From a virus (Duplodnaviria; Heunggongvirae; Uroviricota; Caudoviricetes): DNA of 64,000 nucleotides. Where the stretch lies: positions 134,607 through 198,606 of the IMG/VR virus record IMGVR_UViG_3300029288_000054. One strand, written 5' to 3'. The position numbers were made by a program, and so were the translations under genes. The notes below the pieces were generated by a model. The model saw nothing but the letters and a program-made list of their open reading frames with translations. It searched no databases and was not told the origin of the DNA. How positions within the stretch are numbered: position 1 is the stretch's first letter; every line of letters starts with the position of its first letter. Shown piece after piece: positions 22,748-35,651 of the stretch.

Positions 22748-22891
22748 ATGGTCCAGCTTGACGAAAACCAACTCGCCGAAATCATCATCCCTCTTTGCCC
22801 TTGGTGCGAAGAGCCTCTAACCGGTCGCTCTGACGGTGGATTGCACGAATCTTGTGCGGCGGAACTTGCGGAGGCTTTTCAAGATGCCTAA
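22748..22891 (+). CDS. 47-aa zinc-binding microprotein
   Basis: GGAGG RBS and promoter -10 at 22723-22728; CPWC...HESC. Confidence 0.65.
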   Translation: MVQLDENQLAEIIIPLCPWCEEPLTGRSDGGLHESCAAELAEAFQDA

Positions 22892-23057
22892 TTTTAGCAA
22901 ATGCTGCGATCACGACGAGTATATCTGTCAGGTCTGTGGCAAGTCGAAGTGCAGTAAATGCCACCCACCTGTCTGGGTGGATGGCAGAGGCAACGTCTGC
23001 TCTGAATGCCAGAGAAAGTCTGCAGAAGGCAGAAACACCAATCCTGAGAGTATCTGA
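22884..23057 (+). CDS. 57-aa Cys-rich zinc-finger protein
   Basis: CC...CQVC...CSKC...CSEC; overlaps the previous stop. Confidence 0.6.
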   Translation: MPNFSKCCDHDEYICQVCGKSKCSKCHPPVWVDGRGNVCSECQRKSAEGRNTNPESI

Positions 23058-23118
23058 ACTCCAGGTAGCTATTAACGCCACGACAGTGCCGTGCTATAAT
23101 ACGGTACAGGAGAAACAC

Positions 23119-25176
23119 ATGGACAAGAACAAGTTAGCACAACTTCGCTCGGCGATCGATCGGGCGGCACAACTTTACTACACGCCCGGTTGCGAATCGC
23201 CAGTCACCGACGACGAATTCGAAGCGATGATGGGCGAACTGCGGGAAGTAGCTCCGGATGATTTCCGGCTGACCCGCGTCGGTACACCGTTCTCACCAGA
23301 GGATATGAGAGAGAAGCGGACGCACTCGATTCCCATGGGGTCGCTCGACAACACCGATGGCGGCATCAGCGGGTTTGCGTCGTGGTACGACAAAACGTGT
23401 GCTCTACTCGGCGTCGATAGTTTCGCCGTCAACGCTTCCTTGAAGATGGACGGCAACAGCGTTGCGTTGAGTTATTTCGAAGGCGAGTTTGTTGAAGCGA
23501 TCAGCCGTGGCAATGGTGAGATTGGTGAATCGCTCACAGCCAACGCTGTAAAGTGGATGGGCGTCCCGACTTGCTTGCCCGTCACATTTACTGGCACGAT
23601 TCGCGGTGAAGCGATCCTATATAAGTGCTGGTTTGATGCGATGAAGGAGAACGACCCGACACTCACCAATCCCAGGAACGTCGGCAGCGGCATCCTCGGT
23701 CGCACAGATGGTACACAGAGTGAGTCAATCAACTTCGTCGCTTTCAACCTCGTCGACCCCAAAGCGAGTTTCTCGTCACTGAGCACGAAGTTCAAGGTTC
23801 TGAGCAAGCTTGGCTTCAACCCTGTGCAGCACATCGTCATCAGCGGCACTCGCGATGAAGTCATCAAATCGTTCGAGGACTACTTCGCTGAAATCGAATC
23901 CAGACGCCCCACATTGCCGTTTGAGATTGATGGCGTCGTGGTGATGGTCGATGGCATTCCGGCCCAGAGGTCGATCACGAAGGACCGTAAGGACGAGCTA
24001 CGACCGAAGTACGGTCGGGCTGTGAAGTTCGTCACTGCCAAAGCGCAAACCACAGTGACCGGCGTCACGATCACCATGGGCCACACCGGCTCCATCATCC
24101 CAACAGCGATCTTGGAACCAGTATTCGTCGGTGGTGTCACCGTCACCAACGTCCTACTCAACAACTGGAATGTAGACAGCGAAGCTCCGTCAGCCGCTCA
24201 TGTCGCCATTGGTGACACCGTTGAGATTGCCAGACAAGGCGACGTCATCCCGAAGATCGTCCGAGTCGTCGATCGTCCAGCCGATCGTCAGCCGATTGAA
24301 GAGCCGAAGGTATGCCCCGTTTGCGGCTCACCGACGACCAGAATGCTCCGAGACAAAGAAGGCGTCGTCACTTATTGCACGAATTCCGACTGCGGTGGCG
24401 CATCGGTTCGCAAAATCAAGCATTACATCGGCGACTCCGACAAGGGTGCGGGCATCATGGGCGTCGGCGATAGCATCCTCGAAGCTCTTACGAGCAGCGG
24501 ACTCGTCAGCACACCCGGCGATCTGTATCGGCTCAAGGCCGAACAGTTGGTCGATTTGCAGATCGGTACAAGCAAGAGCGGCACACCGATTCGGCTCGGC
24601 GACAGTAGAACCGCCAACCTACTCGCAGAGATCGAGAAGTCCAAACAGCTTCCGCTCACCAGATTCCTCGGTGGTCTCGGCATCTCGCTGCTTGGTCGGC
24701 GTCGTGTTGAGATCGTCGCCAAAGAGCAAGGGCTGACGACTCTTGAGGATTGGCTGAATGAAGAGAAGCTTGCTGCAATCCCCGGTGATGTGACGCGAAA
24801 GACGATCATCGAAGGGCTGCAGAAGGTGCGTCCCGTCATCGACGACCTGCTCTCTGTTGGCATCGTCGTCTCGCCGGTCGTCCCCATCGAAATCCTGGAG
24901 ACTACAACCATTGCGACAGCCGATGACGGCGTGATTGGCCCCAAGCAGATTGCTGGATCAACATTCTGCTTCACTGGCACGCGTGACTACCTTGATGAGG
25001 TTGTTGCTAAGGGTGGTATCATCAAGAGTGGCGTGAGCAAAGGACTCAACTACTTGGTCCAGAAAGATGCGACGTCATCGTCCGGCAAGACCATGAAGGC
25101 TGAAGCACTCGGCACGAAGATCATCAGCCTTGATTGTCTGCGTGAAGTCCTTGATGGCCTTCGAGAACTGCCTTAA
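23119..25176 (+). CDS. ligA: NAD-dependent DNA ligase
   Basis: SLKMDG adenylation lysine, RGE, NPRN, EIDGVV, OB fold (RQGDVIPKI), CPVC..CTNSDC zinc finger, HhH and BRCT; promoter and AGGAG RBS before ATG 23119. Confidence 0.97.
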   Translation: MDKNKLAQLRSAIDRAAQLYYTPGCESPVTDDEFEAMMGELREVAPDDFRLTRVGTPFSPEDMREKRTHSIPMGSLDNTDGGISGFASWYDKTCALLGVDSFAVNASLKMDGNSVALSYFEGEFVEAISRGNGEIGESLTANAVKWMGVPTCLPVTFTGTIRGEAILYKCWFDAMKENDPTLTNPRNVGSGILGRTDGTQSESINFVAFNLVDPKASFSSLSTKFKVLSKLGFNPVQHIVISGTRDEVIKSFEDYFAEIESRRPTLPFEIDGVVVMVDGIPAQRSITKDRKDELRPKYGRAVKFVTAKAQTTVTGVTITMGHTGSIIPTAILEPVFVGGVTVTNVLLNNWNVDSEAPSAAHVAIGDTVEIARQGDVIPKIVRVVDRPADRQPIEEPKVCPVCGSPTTRMLRDKEGVVTYCTNSDCGGASVRKIKHYIGDSDKGAGIMGVGDSILEALTSSGLVSTPGDLYRLKAEQLVDLQIGTSKSGTPIRLGDSRTANLLAEIEKSKQLPLTRFLGGLGISLLGRRRVEIVAKEQGLTTLEDWLNEEKLAAIPGDVTRKTIIEGLQKVRPVIDDLLSVGIVVSPVVPIEILETTTIATADDGVIGPKQIAGSTFCFTGTRDYLDEVVAKGGIIKSGVSKGLNYLVQKDATSSSGKTMKAEALGTKIISLDCLREVLDGLRELP

Positions 25177-28202: not shown

Positions 28203-28237
28203 GTCGTTCTCCCTGTGTGATGGTTCCCTTGTACTTG

Positions 28238-28266
28238 GTTATAGCACGAACAGAGGGAACTATTAA
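28238..28266 (-). promoter_or_regulatory. phage promoter
   Basis: TTAATA-17-TATAAC. Confidence 0.8.
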
Positions 28267-28276
28267 CCAGAAACCA

Positions 28277-28519
28277 TCAGAACCCATTCTGCTTGAGCCA
28301 TTCGACTTCGGCAGCAAGCGCGTCTGACCGTAATCGTCGAGGTTCCAGCTTCGGACCACCGACCGGCGACATGTCGGCTTGCCACATAATGTCACCGGTT
28401 ATGCTCTTGACCGGCTCCACGTGACTTGCACGGCTGATTGTGGTTTCGCCTTCCTCGTAGAGGGCAGCTAGAGCGTCGTTGTGAATCGCTCCGATGCTGC
28501 CGTCTTCATGGATCGTCAT
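28277..28519 (-). CDS. conserved hypothetical protein (RASHVEP motif)
   Basis: IHEDGSI...ISRASHVEP...WQADMSPVGGP...RSDALAAEVEWL; a family I recall next to DUF2997/DUF1257. Confidence 0.75.
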   Translation of the reverse strand: MTIHEDGSIGAIHNDALAALYEEGETTISRASHVEPVKSITGDIMWQADMSPVGGPKLEPRRLRSDALAAEVEWLKQNGF

Positions 28520-28520
28520 T

Positions 28521-28703
28521 TCAATGGTGCACATGGTTTGCCGTGGTCTGCTGGTACATTTCGGGGGTGGGTTTGTCGGCGGTGACAGTGCCGAGGGCAC
28601 GTTCGACGGTTTTCGTGACGTCTTTGCAGGCTGTTCCAGCCACGCCATTCACCTTGATGGTTGGCGTCCCGTCAGGAGCGATTGTGATTTCAACGACTTG
28701 CAT
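28521..28703 (-). CDS. DUF2997 family protein
   Basis: VEITIAPDG...VNGVAGTACKDVTKTVERALG....KPTPEMY. Confidence 0.85.
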   Translation of the reverse strand: MQVVEITIAPDGTPTIKVNGVAGTACKDVTKTVERALGTVTADKPTPEMYQQTTANHVHH

Positions 28704-28713
28704 GGTTGGTTCC

Positions 28714-29157
28714 TTATCGTTTTGTGCAGACGAGCCGCACATTGCCATTCTGGTCTTGCTTCTCGCTGGTTGCCCATCCCTGGTTTCGCATGGTCTTGGT
28801 GGCGACGGCCACGCCATAGCGTTGTTTCAGATGTGCCATCCCTTGACCAAATACCTTGGTCAGACCACCAGCTTGCCACTCGTCGGCGACGACCCGGAAA
28901 GAGCCGTTTTCTTGCTTGACCAAGCCGATGTCGTAGCTGCACTGTGGGTGGCTGATGACGTGATCACACTTACCGTAGTTCTCAGGCTTGATGCCTTGAC
29001 GATACGCGGCGTTGTCCGCGCTGTAGTCGTTCATCCAGCGGCCATACCACCGGAATGTCTTCTGGTCCCTGACAAGTTCGGCTCCGAGAGCTTTCGCAGC
29101 CGTTTCGAGGGCTTGCAGGTCCTTCACTTCGAGTTGAATTGCTACTACGTGCGACAT
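28714..29157 (-). CDS. DUF1257 (Ycf35-like) family protein
   Basis: MSH...DLQALETA...YDIGL...ADEW...LKQRYGV...QGW...GNVRLV. Confidence 0.8.
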   Translation of the reverse strand: MSHVVAIQLEVKDLQALETAAKALGAELVRDQKTFRWYGRWMNDYSADNAAYRQGIKPENYGKCDHVISHPQCSYDIGLVKQENGSFRVVADEWQAGGLTKVFGQGMAHLKQRYGVAVATKTMRNQGWATSEKQDQNGNVRLVCTKR

Positions 29158-29202
29158 AGTTGGTTCTCCTGTACCTCGTTATAGCACGAGGTGACTATTT
29201 CT

Positions 29203-29571
29203 TTAATCGAGGTTGATGACCCTAGGGGCGTCAAGGTCGGGTATTTCTAGGGGCTTCGGCTTGTTTTGTATATCAGGTGGCGGGGGTGTCGTTGCCATCG
29301 GCATAGCTGTCGTTGGTGGCCAATATCCGGTCGAACCGCCATAGTACCCAGTTGCCCCAGAACCCCAAGAAGCCGTCATCGAGTCCGTGAAAGGCGTCGT
29401 TGTATCGGTGCCCTGTTCGAAGTAAATCGGCTCGTTGTCGGTTGTGTGGTCGAACAGCCCGCTATTGCTGAGGTTCGAGCCATCTGACCCGTAAAAGATA
29501 GCTCGAACCGTTCGATATGGCCAAGAGAAAACACGCCAGAAACTATTCGTCGTCATCTTCATCGTCGTCAA
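29203..29571 (-). CDS. hypothetical Thr/Gly/Pro-rich protein
   Basis: 122-aa ORF overlapping the upstream gene end. Confidence 0.5.
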   Translation of the reverse strand: MTTMKMTTNSFWRVFSWPYRTVRAIFYGSDGSNLSNSGLFDHTTDNEPIYFEQGTDTTTPFTDSMTASWGSGATGYYGGSTGYWPPTTAMPMATTPPPPDIQNKPKPLEIPDLDAPRVINLD

Positions 29572-30511
29572 GGTGAAGAACTCGATTCGGTAACTCCTGC
29601 AGGAGTTTGTCCAAGTTCTCTTTCACCACTGACATACGTGAAGCAACGAAGGATGAAGCCTCTTCGTCTTCCCGGATTGATTCCGGAGTGCGACCGGCGA
29701 GAACCTCTTTGGCTTCGTCGGCAAGCAGAGCCAACTCCTTATCGCCGCAGACGTTGCGGGCAGAGAATAGCTCCAGGAAATCGACGATCTTGGTGATGGT
29801 CGTGGCAGCGAACTTCTTGCGGCTCCCATCGGGTCCGGGGGTCAGACGCTCAACAAGGTGCTCGATGAGCTTGTGGAATCCGACACGGAGAGCAGCCTTG
29901 ACCTGCAGAGCCATGTCCTTGATCTCGTCCGTATGCCGCTTGTTTTCCTGGTAGGCAATCGCCTTGCTTACCTTCTTGTCGCTGGACGGCGACCAATCGA
30001 ACCAACGCCGCTCGACCCAGAACTTGGAACGAAGAGCCAGCCGACCTATCTCGGTGCTTACGTCGAAATAGTTGGTGGCATCGAACTGGTCTTTCAACTC
30101 AATCTTGGCTTCCTCTACCAAGTCGGCGTATTCGGCGACGAAGTGGTCAGCCCACGTGTTGTATGCCTGCTCTGCATTGTCGATCTTGTCGTTGAGATCG
30201 TCAACCAGCGGCAGTGGCATCAGGTGGGTGCCTTCCGAGAACGGAGAACCAGGTACCTCCCGCTTCTTGCAATAGCGGCGGAGATCACGAGCGATCAACA
30301 GCATGTCGTCGTAGTTCTCGCTTGTCATGATCTTCTTGTTGAGACCCAGACGATCCTTGTTGGCGGCTGTCTGAATCTTGGCGATGTTCCCCTTGCGAAT
30401 CAGGCCGGTCTTGTGAAACCGGAGTAATAGGCAAGTCGTAAGGTCGAGGATGTTCACTTCGGCCTTGTCTTCGGCTCTGGCTTCTTCGATGGCTGTCATT
30501 TTGTTCTCCAA
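29543..30511 (-). CDS. DUF3150-like helical protein (tentative)
   Basis: 322-aa helical protein with its own promoter; sits in the AAA/DUF1257/DUF2997 module. Confidence 0.55.
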   Translation of the reverse strand: MENKMTAIEEARAEDKAEVNILDLTTCLLLRFHKTGLIRKGNIAKIQTAANKDRLGLNKKIMTSENYDDMLLIARDLRRYCKKREVPGSPFSEGTHLMPLPLVDDLNDKIDNAEQAYNTWADHFVAEYADLVEEAKIELKDQFDATNYFDVSTEIGRLALRSKFWVERRWFDWSPSSDKKVSKAIAYQENKRHTDEIKDMALQVKAALRVGFHKLIEHLVERLTPGPDGSRKKFAATTITKIVDFLELFSARNVCGDKELALLADEAKEVLAGRTPESIREDEEASSFVASRMSVVKENLDKLLQELPNRVLHLDDDEDDDE

Positions 30512-30534
30512 TGTGGATTTCGTTCCGGTATTTA

Positions 30535-30563
30535 GTTATAGCACGAATACCGGGAATTATTAA
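30535..30563 (-). promoter_or_regulatory. phage promoter
   Basis: TTAATA-17-TATAAC. Confidence 0.8.
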
Positions 30564-30606
30564 CCCCGACAATCGCCCCCGCCGACCGGGGGCGACCGCC
30601 GACACC

Positions 30607-30891
30607 CTACCGCTTCGAGGGGTCCGCCAACTTCGGTTTCTTGGGGGTCTTGAACCGGACCACCTTGACGATCTGGTACCGGCGAGCCTCCCCAATCATG
30701 TAATCGCCATGCGGCCCCGTGAACAAACGATAATCCCCGACGAGCCGGTCGAACACAATCCAGACGTCCACGCGATGCTGGAACACCAGCGCACGAGCCT
30801 CACTGAGCAAGCCACGAGAACGGACAGCCGACAGCATATCAGCGTACAGCATGACACCACCAGGGCAAGAGGAAGAAATAGTAACCGCCAT
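30607..30891 (-). CDS. hypothetical protein
   Basis: Directly behind the promoter (-10 at 30898-30903). Confidence 0.55.
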   Translation of the reverse strand: MAVTISSSCPGGVMLYADMLSAVRSRGLLSEARALVFQHRVDVWIVFDRLVGDYRLFTGPHGDYMIGEARRYQIVKVVRFKTPKKPKLADPSKR

Positions 30892-31004
30892 CCCCTGGTT
30901 ATAGCACGGCGAGCGGGAATTATTAACCGCTGCAGAGAGCAGCGAAAGAGGACGCCCCTGGTTGGACGACGACGAGCCATCCAACCAGGGGCAAACACAC
31001 AGGA

Positions 31005-32591
31005 TTAGCCTAGGTTCAAAGCCCGTTCCGGCTCGACCTTCTTCGGAATCTTGTAGACGCCCTCATGGCTGGCAGACAGGTAACGGTTGTCTGCTGACGC
31101 CCGAAGGCTTTGAATTTCCTCTCGATCGGTCAGACCGACCGGCGTGATGTAGGTGGCAGCATCGGCAATCGAAATGTCCATTCGGAAAGCCTTGTCGCAG
31201 CACTTCTTGATATTACGAGCCACCCAGCCATCATCATCCGTGAAAGGTTCGTCGCCGATACCGTACTTCTTGAGCCACACATCCCAAATCGGACGACGTT
31301 CGACCTGTGGCGGAAGATCAAAGAAGAATGTGTCGGTGAATCGGGACTTCATGGCCGATGACAAGCCGCTGATGCTGTTGCTCGTCGCCAGCCACAGCGT
31401 ATCGGTGCCGCCGATGGCTTGCACTACCTTCAACGCCGCTCTGATGTTGGTTTGGCTCGAACCGACTAGCGAGTTCTGCATGGCTCCAAGGTCGATCCGG
31501 ATGACGACGCGATCAAACTCGGCTCCAACCGCCTTGCAGATGGCCGACTTGCCGCAACCAGGGACACCCAACAGCATGACGCCGAAGACGTCGAAATCTT
31601 CCATCCAGGAAAGCAGAACACCCTCTTGGTCCTGATTGACGCCGCTCGTGTCGCCACGAGCAGCCAAGCCGGTCTTCTCGATTTCGTCCAACCAGACGAT
31701 CACTTTCGGCTGCCGCTTGCCGGTCATGATGCGGCTCAAGTAGGTCTTGATTTGGTCAAGACCACCAAGGTCCGCGAATTTCTCACCACCCCGATGGATC
31801 GAAAGCCCCTTCGTCTGCTCGACCTGCTTCCGCTTCGCTATCCAGCAGTGTTCGAGATCGATGCCGAATTTCGGTTTCTGACCGGCGACCGGCTCACTAC
31901 GCAAGGCCATTGAAATAACCTGCTCTGCTCCGAAGTGAGGCAATCCCTTGACGGACTCGACAACACGACCAATCGCGTCGTCATCCGCCATCGGTCGCTT
32001 CGTCTTGACACCGGTGCCTTCGCATTTCTTGCAGGACGAACGTGGGGCATTCTTCCCCTGGTTCGTGCAGTCGCACTGACTTGCCAACTTGTCAAGCCCC
32101 TTTGCCAGCTTCGTCAGTTGTTCCTCATTGGGCATCGGCTCGTCGATGATGACGACATCGTTCTTGAGGTTGAGCGGCAAGACGATCACTTCGGACAGCA
32201 GGACGAGGGTCTTGCAGGACGCCTTGAACTTGTCGCGAAGATTCCAGACGGCTTGCTTGACGACCGGGTTTTCGAGCCAATCACAAGCACCCAGCATGAA
32301 AACGATCGTGTTTGCCGGTAGAGTATCCGGGTTGGCGAGTTGGCACAAGAACTCAATCGGCTGTGTGATCTGCGGGTTTTCGTTCAGAGCGGACGCCGAT
32401 TTCAACGCCGCTTGATTATGGCCCACAATCCCACTTGCCGCATTCCATGCCATCACGGGGGACGGGACGGGGATTTCGCTACATTCCTTCAACAACACGC
32501 TGATGGTAGCAGCAGCATCGTTCGATTCGATCCCGATAAGAGGGACACCTACGCGACGGGCAGCGATAAACTGTTCAGTGAAAGAGAGCAT
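31005..32591 (-). CDS. Ycf46-like AAA+ ATPase with permuted Walker motifs
   Basis: GGLDQIK, WLDEIEK, GVPGCGKS, LATSN, SRF and FFFDLP, with Walker B occurring before Walker A. Confidence 0.88.
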   Translation of the reverse strand: MLSFTEQFIAARRVGVPLIGIESNDAAATISVLLKECSEIPVPSPVMAWNAASGIVGHNQAALKSASALNENPQITQPIEFLCQLANPDTLPANTIVFMLGACDWLENPVVKQAVWNLRDKFKASCKTLVLLSEVIVLPLNLKNDVVIIDEPMPNEEQLTKLAKGLDKLASQCDCTNQGKNAPRSSCKKCEGTGVKTKRPMADDDAIGRVVESVKGLPHFGAEQVISMALRSEPVAGQKPKFGIDLEHCWIAKRKQVEQTKGLSIHRGGEKFADLGGLDQIKTYLSRIMTGKRQPKVIVWLDEIEKTGLAARGDTSGVNQDQEGVLLSWMEDFDVFGVMLLGVPGCGKSAICKAVGAEFDRVVIRIDLGAMQNSLVGSSQTNIRAALKVVQAIGGTDTLWLATSNSISGLSSAMKSRFTDTFFFDLPPQVERRPIWDVWLKKYGIGDEPFTDDDGWVARNIKKCCDKAFRMDISIADAATYITPVGLTDREEIQSLRASADNRYLSASHEGVYKIPKKVEPERALNLG

Positions 32592-32639
32592 GACTTTGTA
32601 TCCTGTGTGTTCGGGGCGGACCTCCCGCCCTCATACTTG

Positions 32640-32668
32640 GTTATAGCACGAACAAAGGGAATTATTAA
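32640..32668 (-). promoter_or_regulatory. phage promoter
   Basis: TTAATA-17-TATAAC. Confidence 0.8.
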
Positions 32669-32674
32669 CCGAGG

Positions 32675-32971: not shown

Positions 32972-33047
32972 CGATTCTCCTGTGTGTCGGAGCGGTACTC
33001 CCGCCTCGTACTTAATTATAGCACGAGCGAAAGTAATTATTAACCGG
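32966..33047 (-). repeat. promoter-stem-loop-RBS cassette, copy 1
   Basis: 82 nt, near-identical to 33370..33451. Confidence 0.85.
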
Positions 33048-33375
33048 CTCGACAGGGCTTCGGCGTCACCTTCCATCGGTTGCTGAGAAGAGCTTCCAGA
33101 TGCGTTTTGTCCAGTATGCTGTGTGTCATCAGGGTGGGATTGACGTTATCGGGCAGGTTGTCAAGCGCGTTCTGGAAGACGAAGGCAACCTCGACGGTCC
33201 CCGAATGCGGCTCTTCCCAAAGATGCACTTTGCAATGCTTCATCAGCATTTCGCGATTGCTGCCCTTTTCGATCTTGAACTCTGGACCAAGCTTTCGCAA
33301 AAGCCGATCTCGCCAAGTTGTGGGAGCGACACCAACATCACCCTCTAAAGAGCAAGCTCTGTAATCTAGCATCAT
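33040..33375 (-). CDS. hypothetical protein
   Basis: Starts MMLDYRAC after the same cassette RBS. Confidence 0.7.
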   Translation of the reverse strand: MMLDYRACSLEGDVGVAPTTWRDRLLRKLGPEFKIEKGSNREMLMKHCKVHLWEEPHSGTVEVAFVFQNALDNLPDNVNPTLMTHSILDKTHLEALLSNRWKVTPKPCRAG

Positions 33376-33451
33376 CGATTCTCCTGTGTGTCGGAGCGGT
33401 ACCCCGCCCTCGTACTTGGTTATAGCACGACGAGCGGGAACTATTAACCGG
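33370..33451 (-). repeat. promoter-stem-loop-RBS cassette, copy 2
   Basis: Shares CATCATCGATTCTCCTGTGTGTCGGAGCGGTAC...TTATAGCACGA...TATTAACCGG with copy 1. Confidence 0.85.
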
Positions 33452-33695
33452 ACCGTCTGAATACTCAAACAGCCATGGCGACGACAAGCCACCATGGCTG
33501 TTGCACAGGAACACTATTTCGGTTTCTCGTAGTTGACTGGCGGACCGTCCCACATTCGAACAGGTCGAGCAGGATAAAGCACTATCTCGCCTTGCTCGTT
33601 CAGCTTCACCATCCCTAGGGTGTTGCCAACGCCGTCCTTCAACTTCGTCAACTTAGAAGTCAACTTAATCTGTTTTGTTTCCATTTAGGAAAGGG

Positions 33696-34819: not shown

Positions 34820-34899
34820 TTCGCGGAATCCTGTGTGAGTACCAGGGTCATGAGGGCCGGACCGAATTCGGTCGTCTCGTCACCCTCTCCCGGTACTTG

Positions 34900-34980
34900 G
34901 TTATAGCACGGCACGAGCCGGTCATTAATTCCCGCTTCGCCGACGAGCCGGTTAATAGTTCCCCTCTGTCGTGCTATAAC
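34900..34980. promoter_or_regulatory. divergent phage promoter pair
   Basis: Minus strand TTAATG-17-TATAAC (34900-34928) and plus strand TTAATA-17-TATAAC (34952-34980). Confidence 0.8.
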
Positions 34981-34998
34981 CAAGTAGGAGAAAAGAAC

Positions 34999-35283: not shown

Positions 35284-35525
35284 TAGCAGCCGAGTTCAAG
35301 ACAGCCTGCAAACTGGCATTCGACAGAGCGGTTGATCTGTCGGGTGAAAACGACGACAGCTTTTGGGGTTTCGGTCTTCCAGGATTCAAGCCAATCATGG
35401 CGACGATCCGCCAAGCAGCCAAGGCAATCCGCTATCAATGCTGGCAGCTTGATGGGGGTATCGACAACGACAACCTACAGGAATGTCGGGTTGCCTTTCG
35501 TAGGAACGTCACCGTCGTCGGTTAA
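35280..35525 (+). CDS. hypothetical protein
   Basis: ATGA overlap, MIAAEFK. Confidence 0.7.
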   Translation: MIAAEFKTACKLAFDRAVDLSGENDDSFWGFGLPGFKPIMATIRQAAKAIRYQCWQLDGGIDNDNLQECRVAFRRNVTVVG

Positions 35526-35632
35526 TAGTTCCCTCTTCTCGTGCTATAACGTACCGGCGTGGAGAAGGTGACGCGCCACAAAACAGTGGGGCGGGTCTGG
35601 CCGTTAATAGTCACCGCCTGTCGTGCTATAAC
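35522..35632 (+). promoter_or_regulatory. two tandem phage promoters
   Basis: TTAATA-17-TATAAC at 35522-35550 and 35604-35632. Confidence 0.8.
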
Positions 35633-35651
35633 CAAGTAGGAGGAAACCACG

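Follow-up and report, generated by a model that had tools for sequence, protein, structure and literature searches.

A Ycf46-like AAA ATPase in which the Walker B segment precedes the Walker A segment was found to be encoded within a 64,000-nucleotide stretch of viral DNA (hereafter the window), corresponding to positions 134607–198606 of IMG/VR record IMGVR_UViG_3300029288_000054. The source is taken to be a jumbo phage, as the record is 388,105 bp in length and 99% complete by CheckV. The gene (P0001) lies on the minus strand at 31005–32591, stop codon included, and its 528-amino acid product matches the Pfam AAA model PF00004 (E 2.5e-14) in two out-of-order stretches. The protein is probably a classic-clade AAA ATPase whose core underwent an old, single-origin, non-cyclic permutation with the canonical fold kept, and it may act as the motor of a mobile gene module.

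In canonical AAA domains the order of elements is Walker A, strand 2, Walker B and sensor 1. In P0001, Walker B (residues 297–303) lies ahead of Walker A (residues 342–349). The upstream block of the protein consists of G276-G277-L..K282, P295-K296, V297..L301-D302-E303 (Walker B), G312-D-T-S-G-V and L326..E331-D332, and is followed by a block with G337..G342-V-P-G345-C-G-K348-S349 (Walker A), V376-G377 (pore loop 1), R384, L399..T403-S-N405 (sensor 1), R417 and F422-F-F-D-L-P. A genome-wide Pfam scan placed positions 46–96 of PF00004 on residues 281–334, upstream of positions 1–54 on residues 338–391. The motif order is thus truly inverted and is not the product of a chance motif, as stretches of the same model match in reversed order. 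For all canonical AAA models and chains (Pfam, NCBIfam, PADLOC and PDB sequences), collinear matches were limited to residues 337 to approximately 391. A preliminary description of the window had reported that the two Walker blocks were swapped with their motifs intact, and this proved exact both in the reading of the open reading frame (ORF) and in the out-of-order PF00004 match.

The permuted region can be divided into four pieces, all on the minus strand. The first (residues 262–296; 31704–31808) is a linker followed by helix 0 with a GGL..K motif, ending at P295-K296 (alignment A1; DSSP helix 279–289), within which L275 and L278 co-vary with G347 of the P-loop. Segment A (residues 297–336; 31584–31703) is the relocated cassette, with strand 3 and Walker B (D302, E303), pore loop 2 and helix 3 (DSSP strand 297–301 and helix 318–332). 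Segment B (residues 337–397; 31401–31583) carries strand 1, Walker A (G342..K348-S349), helix 1, strand 2, pore loop 1 (L375-V-G377) and helix 2, and is matched by PDB AAA chains at residues 337–389 only, by sequence. The last piece (residues 398–445; 31257–31400) holds strand 4 with sensor 1 (N405), helix 4 with the Arg finger (R417), strand 5 and the first lid helix, as supported by DSSP.

The alignment with Ycf46 proposed in the preliminary description was made against normal-order Ycf46-like cousins, and gave homology over the full length with the Walker B cassette displaced. With BLASTP, residues 95–513 of P0001 aligned with a 548-aa normal-order cousin from Lignipirellula (L022; 8e-47), with a gap in each protein opposite the Walker B cassette of the other and the two cassettes visibly homologous. 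The same reciprocal cassette gaps were obtained when the alignment of permuted sequences (A2) was compared with that of normal-order sequences (A3) by hhalign (probability 100, E 7.7e-75, 444 columns). Two profiles of the AAA region were also built from A2, one in native order and one with segments A and B exchanged, and were tested on 22 ordinary AAA proteins encoded by two bacterial genomes, among them proteins of the FtsH-like, Cdc48-like and Ycf46-like kinds. With the exchanged profile, each of the 22 gave a single collinear domain, and the score was 13 to 48 bits higher than with the native profile, which matched ordinary AAA proteins as fragments ordered 2–30, 75–132, 36–75 and 136–261. 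Once un-swapped, the junctions were seamless, with P-K leading to G-V-M-L-L-G, the end of helix 2 to V-I-V-W-L-D-E, and D-V-F to T-L-W-L-A-T-S-N. As read from these alignments, the permutation is an exact swap of two adjacent segments. Acidic motifs following hydrophobic strands are common, and the upstream hhhhDE could in principle be a look-alike of this kind, with the real Walker B downstream of Walker A and the core not permuted. Such a reading is highly improbable, given that helix 2 runs straight into the sensor 1 strand (residues 398–404) with no strand or acidic pair between them, that homology between the upstream cassette and the cousins' Walker B cassette extends over all 40 residues, and that its strand co-varies with strand 4.

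The permuted order is widespread. A word-indexed search with P0001 returned 423 homologues. In an exhaustive profile search of clusters formed at 50% identity, the best 150 clusters were examined (E below 1e-159), and each of them aligned with the permuted profile over its full length, either unbroken or, where there is an intein, in two stretches. The 3,540 clusters found at E<=1e-30 give no usable family size, because the normal-order cousins reach this threshold too. Separate hidden Markov models (HMMs) for the four pieces (pre, 262–296; A, 297–336; B, 337–397; post, 398–445) gave the order pre-A-B-post in 259 of 259 relatives of P0001 and pre-B-A-post in approximately 240 cousins retrieved using queries of normal order. 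When each prokaryote species was scanned through a single genome, 417 related stretches were obtained, and the best 80 loci were all permuted. These 80 belonged mostly to Acidobacteriota, with further loci from Armatimonadota, Gemmatimonadota, Planctomycetota, Nitrospirota (including the Nitrospira moscoviensis chromosome), Myxococcota and Dormibacterota. The permuted ATPase was also present in the complete chromosome of Lignipirellula cremea, an assembly of Longimicrobium terrae and the cultured Tunturiibacter phage Tunturi_3 (gp103), and the permuted order was seen in all 83 loci from named genomes and this one cultured phage. That the order arose as an assembly or annotation artefact in the phage contig has next to no probability and, on the sequences compared, is already refuted by independent homologues, since the same order occurs in proteins of 97%, 91% and 89% identity from independent assemblies, in the complete chromosomes of L. 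cremea and N. moscoviensis and in Tunturi_3. The preliminary description had named misassembly, or the lack of any independent homologue with the same order, as what would undo its observation. Both are contradicted by independent assemblies and genomes, and the order is shared by hundreds of independent phage and bacterial relatives.

A tree was built from an alignment of 35 un-swapped permuted sequences, 34 normal-order cousins and five outgroup AAA domains. This tree placed the 35 permuted forms, P0001 among them, within one clade with deep internal branches (Shimodaira–Hasegawa-like approximate likelihood ratio test, SH-aLRT, 97), requiring a single change of order. Judged from this tree, the permutation is probably old and of single origin.

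The catalytic residues are conserved throughout. P0001 has a Walker A motif of the form GxxGxGK[ST], a Walker B motif of the form hhhhDE, a sensor 1 Asn and a second region of homology with an Arg finger. Six positions were invariant in all 246 full-length permuted sequences (G345, K348, S/T349, E303, N405 and R417), D302 was kept in 243 of them and position 415 was Arg or Lys in 220. Inteins typically sit in indispensable motifs. In several permuted relatives, inteins have inserted into the P-loop (ahead of C346 or S349), pore loop 1 or sensor 1, and in two normal-order cousins (P0463 and P0484) an intein occupies the same P-loop site. The intein-bearing permuted relatives (P0014, P0015, P0078, P0233, P0254, P0071 and P0239) carry Hint with LAGLIDADG or Hom_end domains, and C346 of the window protein corresponds to the +1 position of the commonest insertion site (G^C-G-K-S). 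An apparent B-B arrangement in P0071 was discarded, as it is due to an intein splitting segment B.

The permuted P-loop ATPase is probably active. Its N-terminal domain is already a degenerate AAA-like one and its pore loop 1 is without an aromatic residue, both of which would suit an inactive pseudo-ATPase, in which catalysis was broken by the rearrangement and the protein is retained because it binds nucleotide and serves the module as a scaffold or adaptor. There is only a slight chance that this is so. The Walker B Glu, sensor 1 and the Arg finger serve hydrolysis and not binding, and are invariant in 246 sequences down to approximately 35–40% identity. Furthermore, inteins target these same motifs and the family is old and spread over many phyla.

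The fold was predicted with AlphaFold2 using 109 sequences, and the model of P0001 had a predicted local distance difference test score (pLDDT) of 92.2, the lowest confidence within the catalytic domain being in loop 301–320 after Walker B (pLDDT approximately 78). The order of elements in the catalytic domain of the model is helix 0, strand 3, helix 3, strand 1, helix 1, strand 2, helix 2, strand 4, helix 4 and strand 5, while the model of a normal-order cousin (P0261) has identical elements of identical lengths in a different order. In sequential structure alignment, 201 of 244 residues were aligned with the D2 domain of p97 (3cf0_A; Z 17.0, 2.2 Å). Against eight single-domain AAA chains, 196–212 residues of the permuted model were aligned (Z 16.3–17.2), compared with 233–257 residues for the normal-order cousin as a control (Z 23.6–24.4). 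The deficit of 36–48 residues equals the size of segment A. The monomer prediction suggested in the preliminary description has thus given a confident AAA fold in which some 40 residues, the size of segment A, are missing from the overlay on p97 D2. The new linkers of the permuted model are 7, 3 and 3 residues long, the latter two joining helix 3 to strand 1 and helix 2 to strand 4. In this prediction, supported by the p97 D2 overlay and by the coevolving contacts described below, the domain has the alpha-beta-alpha architecture of AAA proteins with a 5-1-4-3-2 sheet and a helical lid.

Contacts were also examined by mean-field direct-coupling analysis of 324 permuted sequences (effective number of sequences, 216). 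Only columns with <=3% gaps were used, giving 26,806 pairs, as unfiltered columns were dominated by gap artefacts. The strongest of all pairs was between V297 at the start of strand 3 and G394 at the end of helix 2 (z 15.7), the counterparts of which are chain neighbours in ordinary AAA proteins. Strand 3 was coupled to strand 4 (V299-W400, z 8.1; I304-A402), helix 3 to helix 2, pore loop 1 and the strand 4-helix 4 loop (z 10–15), and strand 1 to strand 5 (L340-F424). In 13 of the top 45 pairs, segment A was linked with helix 2, pore loop 1, strand 4, the strand 4-helix 4 loop or the lid, and no coupling above z 3.1 was detected between the cassette and its new chain neighbours, strand 1 and helix 0. 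This pattern is that of contacts in the canonical 5-1-4-3-2 sheet, and the short linkers agree with it. The conserved order, the invariant catalytic residues, the fold overlay and the coevolution all support the internally permuted, probably active P-loop fold first proposed in the preliminary description.

That description had offered as a second possibility an active site built from swapped subunits, that is, a ring in which each subunit lends its Walker B cassette to the fold of the next and each active site is shared by two chains. The coevolving pairs could in principle lie between chains, and loop 301–320 is the least confident part of the domain. However, the 3-residue loops at the junctions between helix 3 and strand 1 and between helix 2 and strand 4 suit neighbouring strands of one sheet, the model is a compact monomer (pLDDT 92) that overlays p97 D2 at 2.2 Å, and every strand that the cassette must reach is at most two positions away in the canonical sheet. 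A segment-swapped ring is thus unlikely, and it is neither needed nor supported by the data, although coevolution does not separate contacts within a chain from those between chains. A prediction of three copies of residues 255–528 with ATP scored 0.01 and weighs neither way.

In the favoured reading, in which each chain completes its own fold, the protein consists of a degenerate D1-like N-terminal domain followed by one catalytic AAA domain. A cassette of approximately 40 residues (strand 3 and its Walker B motif, with pore loop 2 and helix 3) would have moved from the gap between helix 2 and strand 4 to that between helix 0 and strand 1, with breakpoints exactly at strand starts. Because the cassette would still sit between strands 4 and 2 in space, the 5-1-4-3-2 sheet and the ATP site would be kept. 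Only three loops would be re-routed, each with one or two more strand positions of the sheet to span. The ATP site would be formed by K348 and S349, D302 and E303, and the sensor N405, together with R417 from the neighbouring subunit. From its family membership, the protein is expected to form a ring-shaped unfoldase or remodeller which hydrolyses ATP, and a client could be threaded or pulled by pore loops 1 (L-V-G) and 2. Its partners may be the DUF3150-like, DUF1257, DUF2997 and RASHVEP-motif proteins inherited along with it in the module described below, which large phages and bacterial islands carry.

A number of points count against this interpretation. The placing of the cassette in the model rests on the alignment deficit of approximately 40 residues, secondary structure and coevolution. 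AlphaFold itself draws on coevolution, which means that the lines of evidence for the fold are not fully independent, and coevolution is blind to whether contacts are within or between chains. Pore loop 1 is L-V-G, without the usual aromatic residue, in permuted and normal-order forms alike. Since this loop is shared with the normal-order cousins, threading may differ from that of Cdc48. The tree samples two normal-order clades, which form an unresolved fork with the permuted clade, and its root is placed on long outgroup branches. The permuted order would have arisen most economically if the segment pair was duplicated in tandem (B-A-B-A) and the outer copies were then lost. However, no A-B-A or B-A-B intermediate was found among approximately 500 sequences, and this route is therefore a conjecture.

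The closest normal-order relatives are the Ycf46-like protein gp084 of Rhizobium phage RHph_I4 (QIG76105.1, MN988552.1) and the approximately 500-aa 'AAA family ATPase' proteins of Planctomycetota (Gimesia maris and the paralogues of Lignipirellula cremea). These share with P0001 their length, the degenerate N-terminal domain, a single catalytic AAA domain, the conserved C-terminal tail, homology over the full length and the L-V-G pore loop 1, and gp084 neighbours DUF1257 and DUF2997 genes as in the window. Unlike these cousins, in which Walker A, Walker B and sensor 1 follow in that order, the window protein has its Walker B cassette before Walker A, and identity is 26–34% after un-swapping. 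The approximately 500-aa architecture, seen in the full-length homology with the cousins and in the alignment of both models with D1-D2 tandems, and the DUF1257 and DUF2997 neighbours fit a Ycf46-like protein (SpoVK/Ycf46/Vps4 COG label), a label which draws on the source annotations of the cousins and on an Atlas cluster name. Within the permuted clade, gp103 of Tunturi_3 (XOB77284.1, PP885686.1; annotated 'ATPase') has the order pre-A-B-post and 34.8% identity over 97% of P0001, and provides an experimental handle since this phage has been cultured. Tunturi_3 differs in being a 98-kb acidobacterium phage, and its gp103 is without the zinc-finger-like insert of P0001 and has neighbours annotated as hypothetical, one of them a homologue of the RASHVEP-motif protein.

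P0001 also resembles the type II classic AAA proteins Cdc48/p97, NVL, Rix7 and Drg1/Afg2 (PDB 7lmz, 8u8i, 9bji, 7swl, 3cf0) in its two-tier D1-D2 shape, Walker A and B, sensor 1, Arg finger and lid. It differs from this group in its low identity (13–19%), a D1 without a P-loop, the lack of an N-terminal double-psi barrel, its non-aromatic pore loop 1 and the relocated Walker B cassette. Circularly permuted GTPases (YlqF/RbgA, YjeQ/RsgA and YqeH; G4-G5-G1-G2-G3) set a precedent for re-ordering the motifs of a P-loop NTPase core without loss of fold or activity. They represent a true circular permutation of a whole TRAFAC-class domain, whereas P0001 shows an internal swap of two adjacent segments, with the ends of the domain in place, in a protein of the ASCE/AAA+ class. 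Non-cyclic permutations constitute a known, though rare, class among proteins (PMC2096629). A sequence search of the PDB gave no entry from the permuted lineage, and the source names of permuted proteins were 'AAA family ATPase' or 'hypothetical protein' only. No description of the permutation was found in the full-text literature, subscription journals being outside the scope of that search, or in the jumbo-phage survey of Iyer et al. (PMC7824862).

It is an evenly balanced question whether this lineage represents the first recognised natural non-cyclic permutation in the catalytic core of AAA+ (ASCE) proteins, with the placing of Walker A before Walker B a historical accident and no requirement of folding or function, and with the new wiring perhaps adaptive. 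If so, the N-terminal domain and helix 0 would now lead directly to the Walker B strand and pore loop 2. Binding of a client or partner at the N-terminal domain could then directly gate hydrolysis and pore movement, which might account for the wide spread of the permuted form in phages and mobile islands. Few folds have been studied more than those of AAA+ and other P-loop ATPases, and the order of Walker A, Walker B and sensor 1 underlies their definitions, every family model and genome annotation. Because the Walker B cassette comes before Walker A, such family models score permuted proteins weakly or in part, and the lineage is a clear example of where structures should be compared non-sequentially. 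Rewiring would appear to be tolerated in a protein core whose order was regarded as fixed, and a permuted lineage which is large, old and apparently active would be a natural experiment on the role of connectivity in folding, allostery and ring mechanics.

Outside the permuted core, residues 1–250 of P0001 (31842–32591, minus strand) form the N-terminal domain, which is homologous to that of the normal-order cousins. The whole model aligned with 7lmz_C over 396 residues (Z 18.6). As the whole protein aligns with D1-D2 tandems (p97, Cdc48, NVL, Rix7 and Drg1), its first 250 residues are considered to be a degenerate AAA-like (D1-like) tier without a P-loop. The CDC...CKKCEGTG zinc-finger-like insert mentioned in the preliminary description is indeed present within this domain at residues 172–196 (32004–32078, minus strand), where C173, C175, C187 and C190 followed by G-T-G make up a four-Cys CxC...CxxCxGxG pattern. 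Judging by its occurrence in only 33 of the 246 relatives, it is a lineage-specific insertion. At the other end, residues 446–528 (31008–31256, minus strand) comprise the helical lid and a conserved C-terminal tail (R..LSAS..G.Y .. R523; alignments A1 and A2) homologous to the tail of the normal-order cousins.

The ATPase gene heads a set of minus-strand genes encoding a DUF3150-like protein, a 122-aa ORF, a DUF1257 protein, a DUF2997-like 60-mer and an 85-aa protein with a conserved R-A-S-H-V-E-P motif. Conservation of this set was assessed in 62 permuted-ATPase loci with enough flank, among which gene order varies. The DUF3150-like protein (29543–30511; 322 aa), identified by a weak, sub-threshold Pfam match (E 0.0028), is the most faithfully linked neighbour, with homologues downstream of the permuted ATPase in 59 of the 62 loci. 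It has an acidic tail (D-D-D-E-D-D-D-E), no PHROG match and no PDB relative. The DUF1257 (Ycf35-like) protein (28714–29157; PF06868, E 2.9e-9; phrog_20456) was found in 36 loci and the DUF2997-like protein (28521–28703; phrog_23133, E 2.5e-13) in 49, with the annotation DUF2997 in loci L001, L002 and L028. Homologues of the RASHVEP-motif protein (28277–28534) occur in 14 loci, including those of Tunturi_3, Lignipirellula and Longimicrobium. By sequence, no PDB relative was found for the partner proteins, and their PHROGs matches were to families of unknown function only. No convincing likeness was seen by eye between the RASHVEP-motif proteins and the tail of the ATPase (R..LSAS..G.Y). The two genes upstream in the window (133 and 151 aa) had no homologues in the related loci. 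The module predates the permutation, as phage RHph_I4 pairs a normal-order ATPase with DUF1257 and DUF2997. A widespread module of phages and mobile islands (AAA, DUF3150-like, DUF1257 and DUF2997) is flagged and linked to the orphan plastid and cyanobacterial Ycf35 and Ycf46.

The bacterial copies of Lignipirellula (L001, 1–4240) and Longimicrobium (L002, 4908–7304) lie beside restriction-modification genes of type I or type II and beside GmrSD, DUF5677 and a DDE transposase, a setting that resembles a defence island or mobile element. Four separate permuted-ATPase loci were present in each of two acidobacterial bins, Bryobacter sp. Bin_54_2 (L047, L070, L086 and L098) and Bryobacteraceae JAIEPW01 (L042, L069, L085 and L108), which suggests several prophages or other mobile elements per genome. 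These four-copy bins, together with the restriction-modification, GmrSD and transposase neighbours, fit a mobile element. In Lignipirellula, a 212-aa protein with a normal-order AAA domain is encoded directly upstream of the permuted ATPase (L001, 9292–9930). This small upstream AAA gene is not conserved, being absent from all 73 loci with upstream flank. A second AAA protein of the same phage, a 383-aa open frame in normal order (PF00004, 2–126), is located outside the window (C1:225189–225482).

Many short genes of the window, on either strand, are directly preceded by a repeat of approximately 46 nt, and the ATPase gene and each of its module partners are among them. The copy immediately upstream of the ATPase gene (32628–32673, minus strand) is promoter-like and is one of at least seven copies of the 46-nt element which precede genes. 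Copies were located at 28226–28271, 29161–29189, 30523–30568, 30886–30931, 32628–32673, 33003–33048, 33407–33452 and 34888–34933, with inverted copies at 34951–34994, 35521–35564 and 35603–35646. On the gene strand the repeat reads GTTAATA, a spacer and TCGTGCTATAAC, and looks like a putative phage promoter consensus with an extended −10 region. Three of the copies are part of a longer, 82-nt cassette that includes a hairpin and a ribosome-binding site. It should also be noted that the window encodes a 774-aa NAD-dependent DNA ligase on the plus strand (22852–25176), with adenylation, OB and zinc-finger domains and approximately 150 extra residues at its N-terminus.

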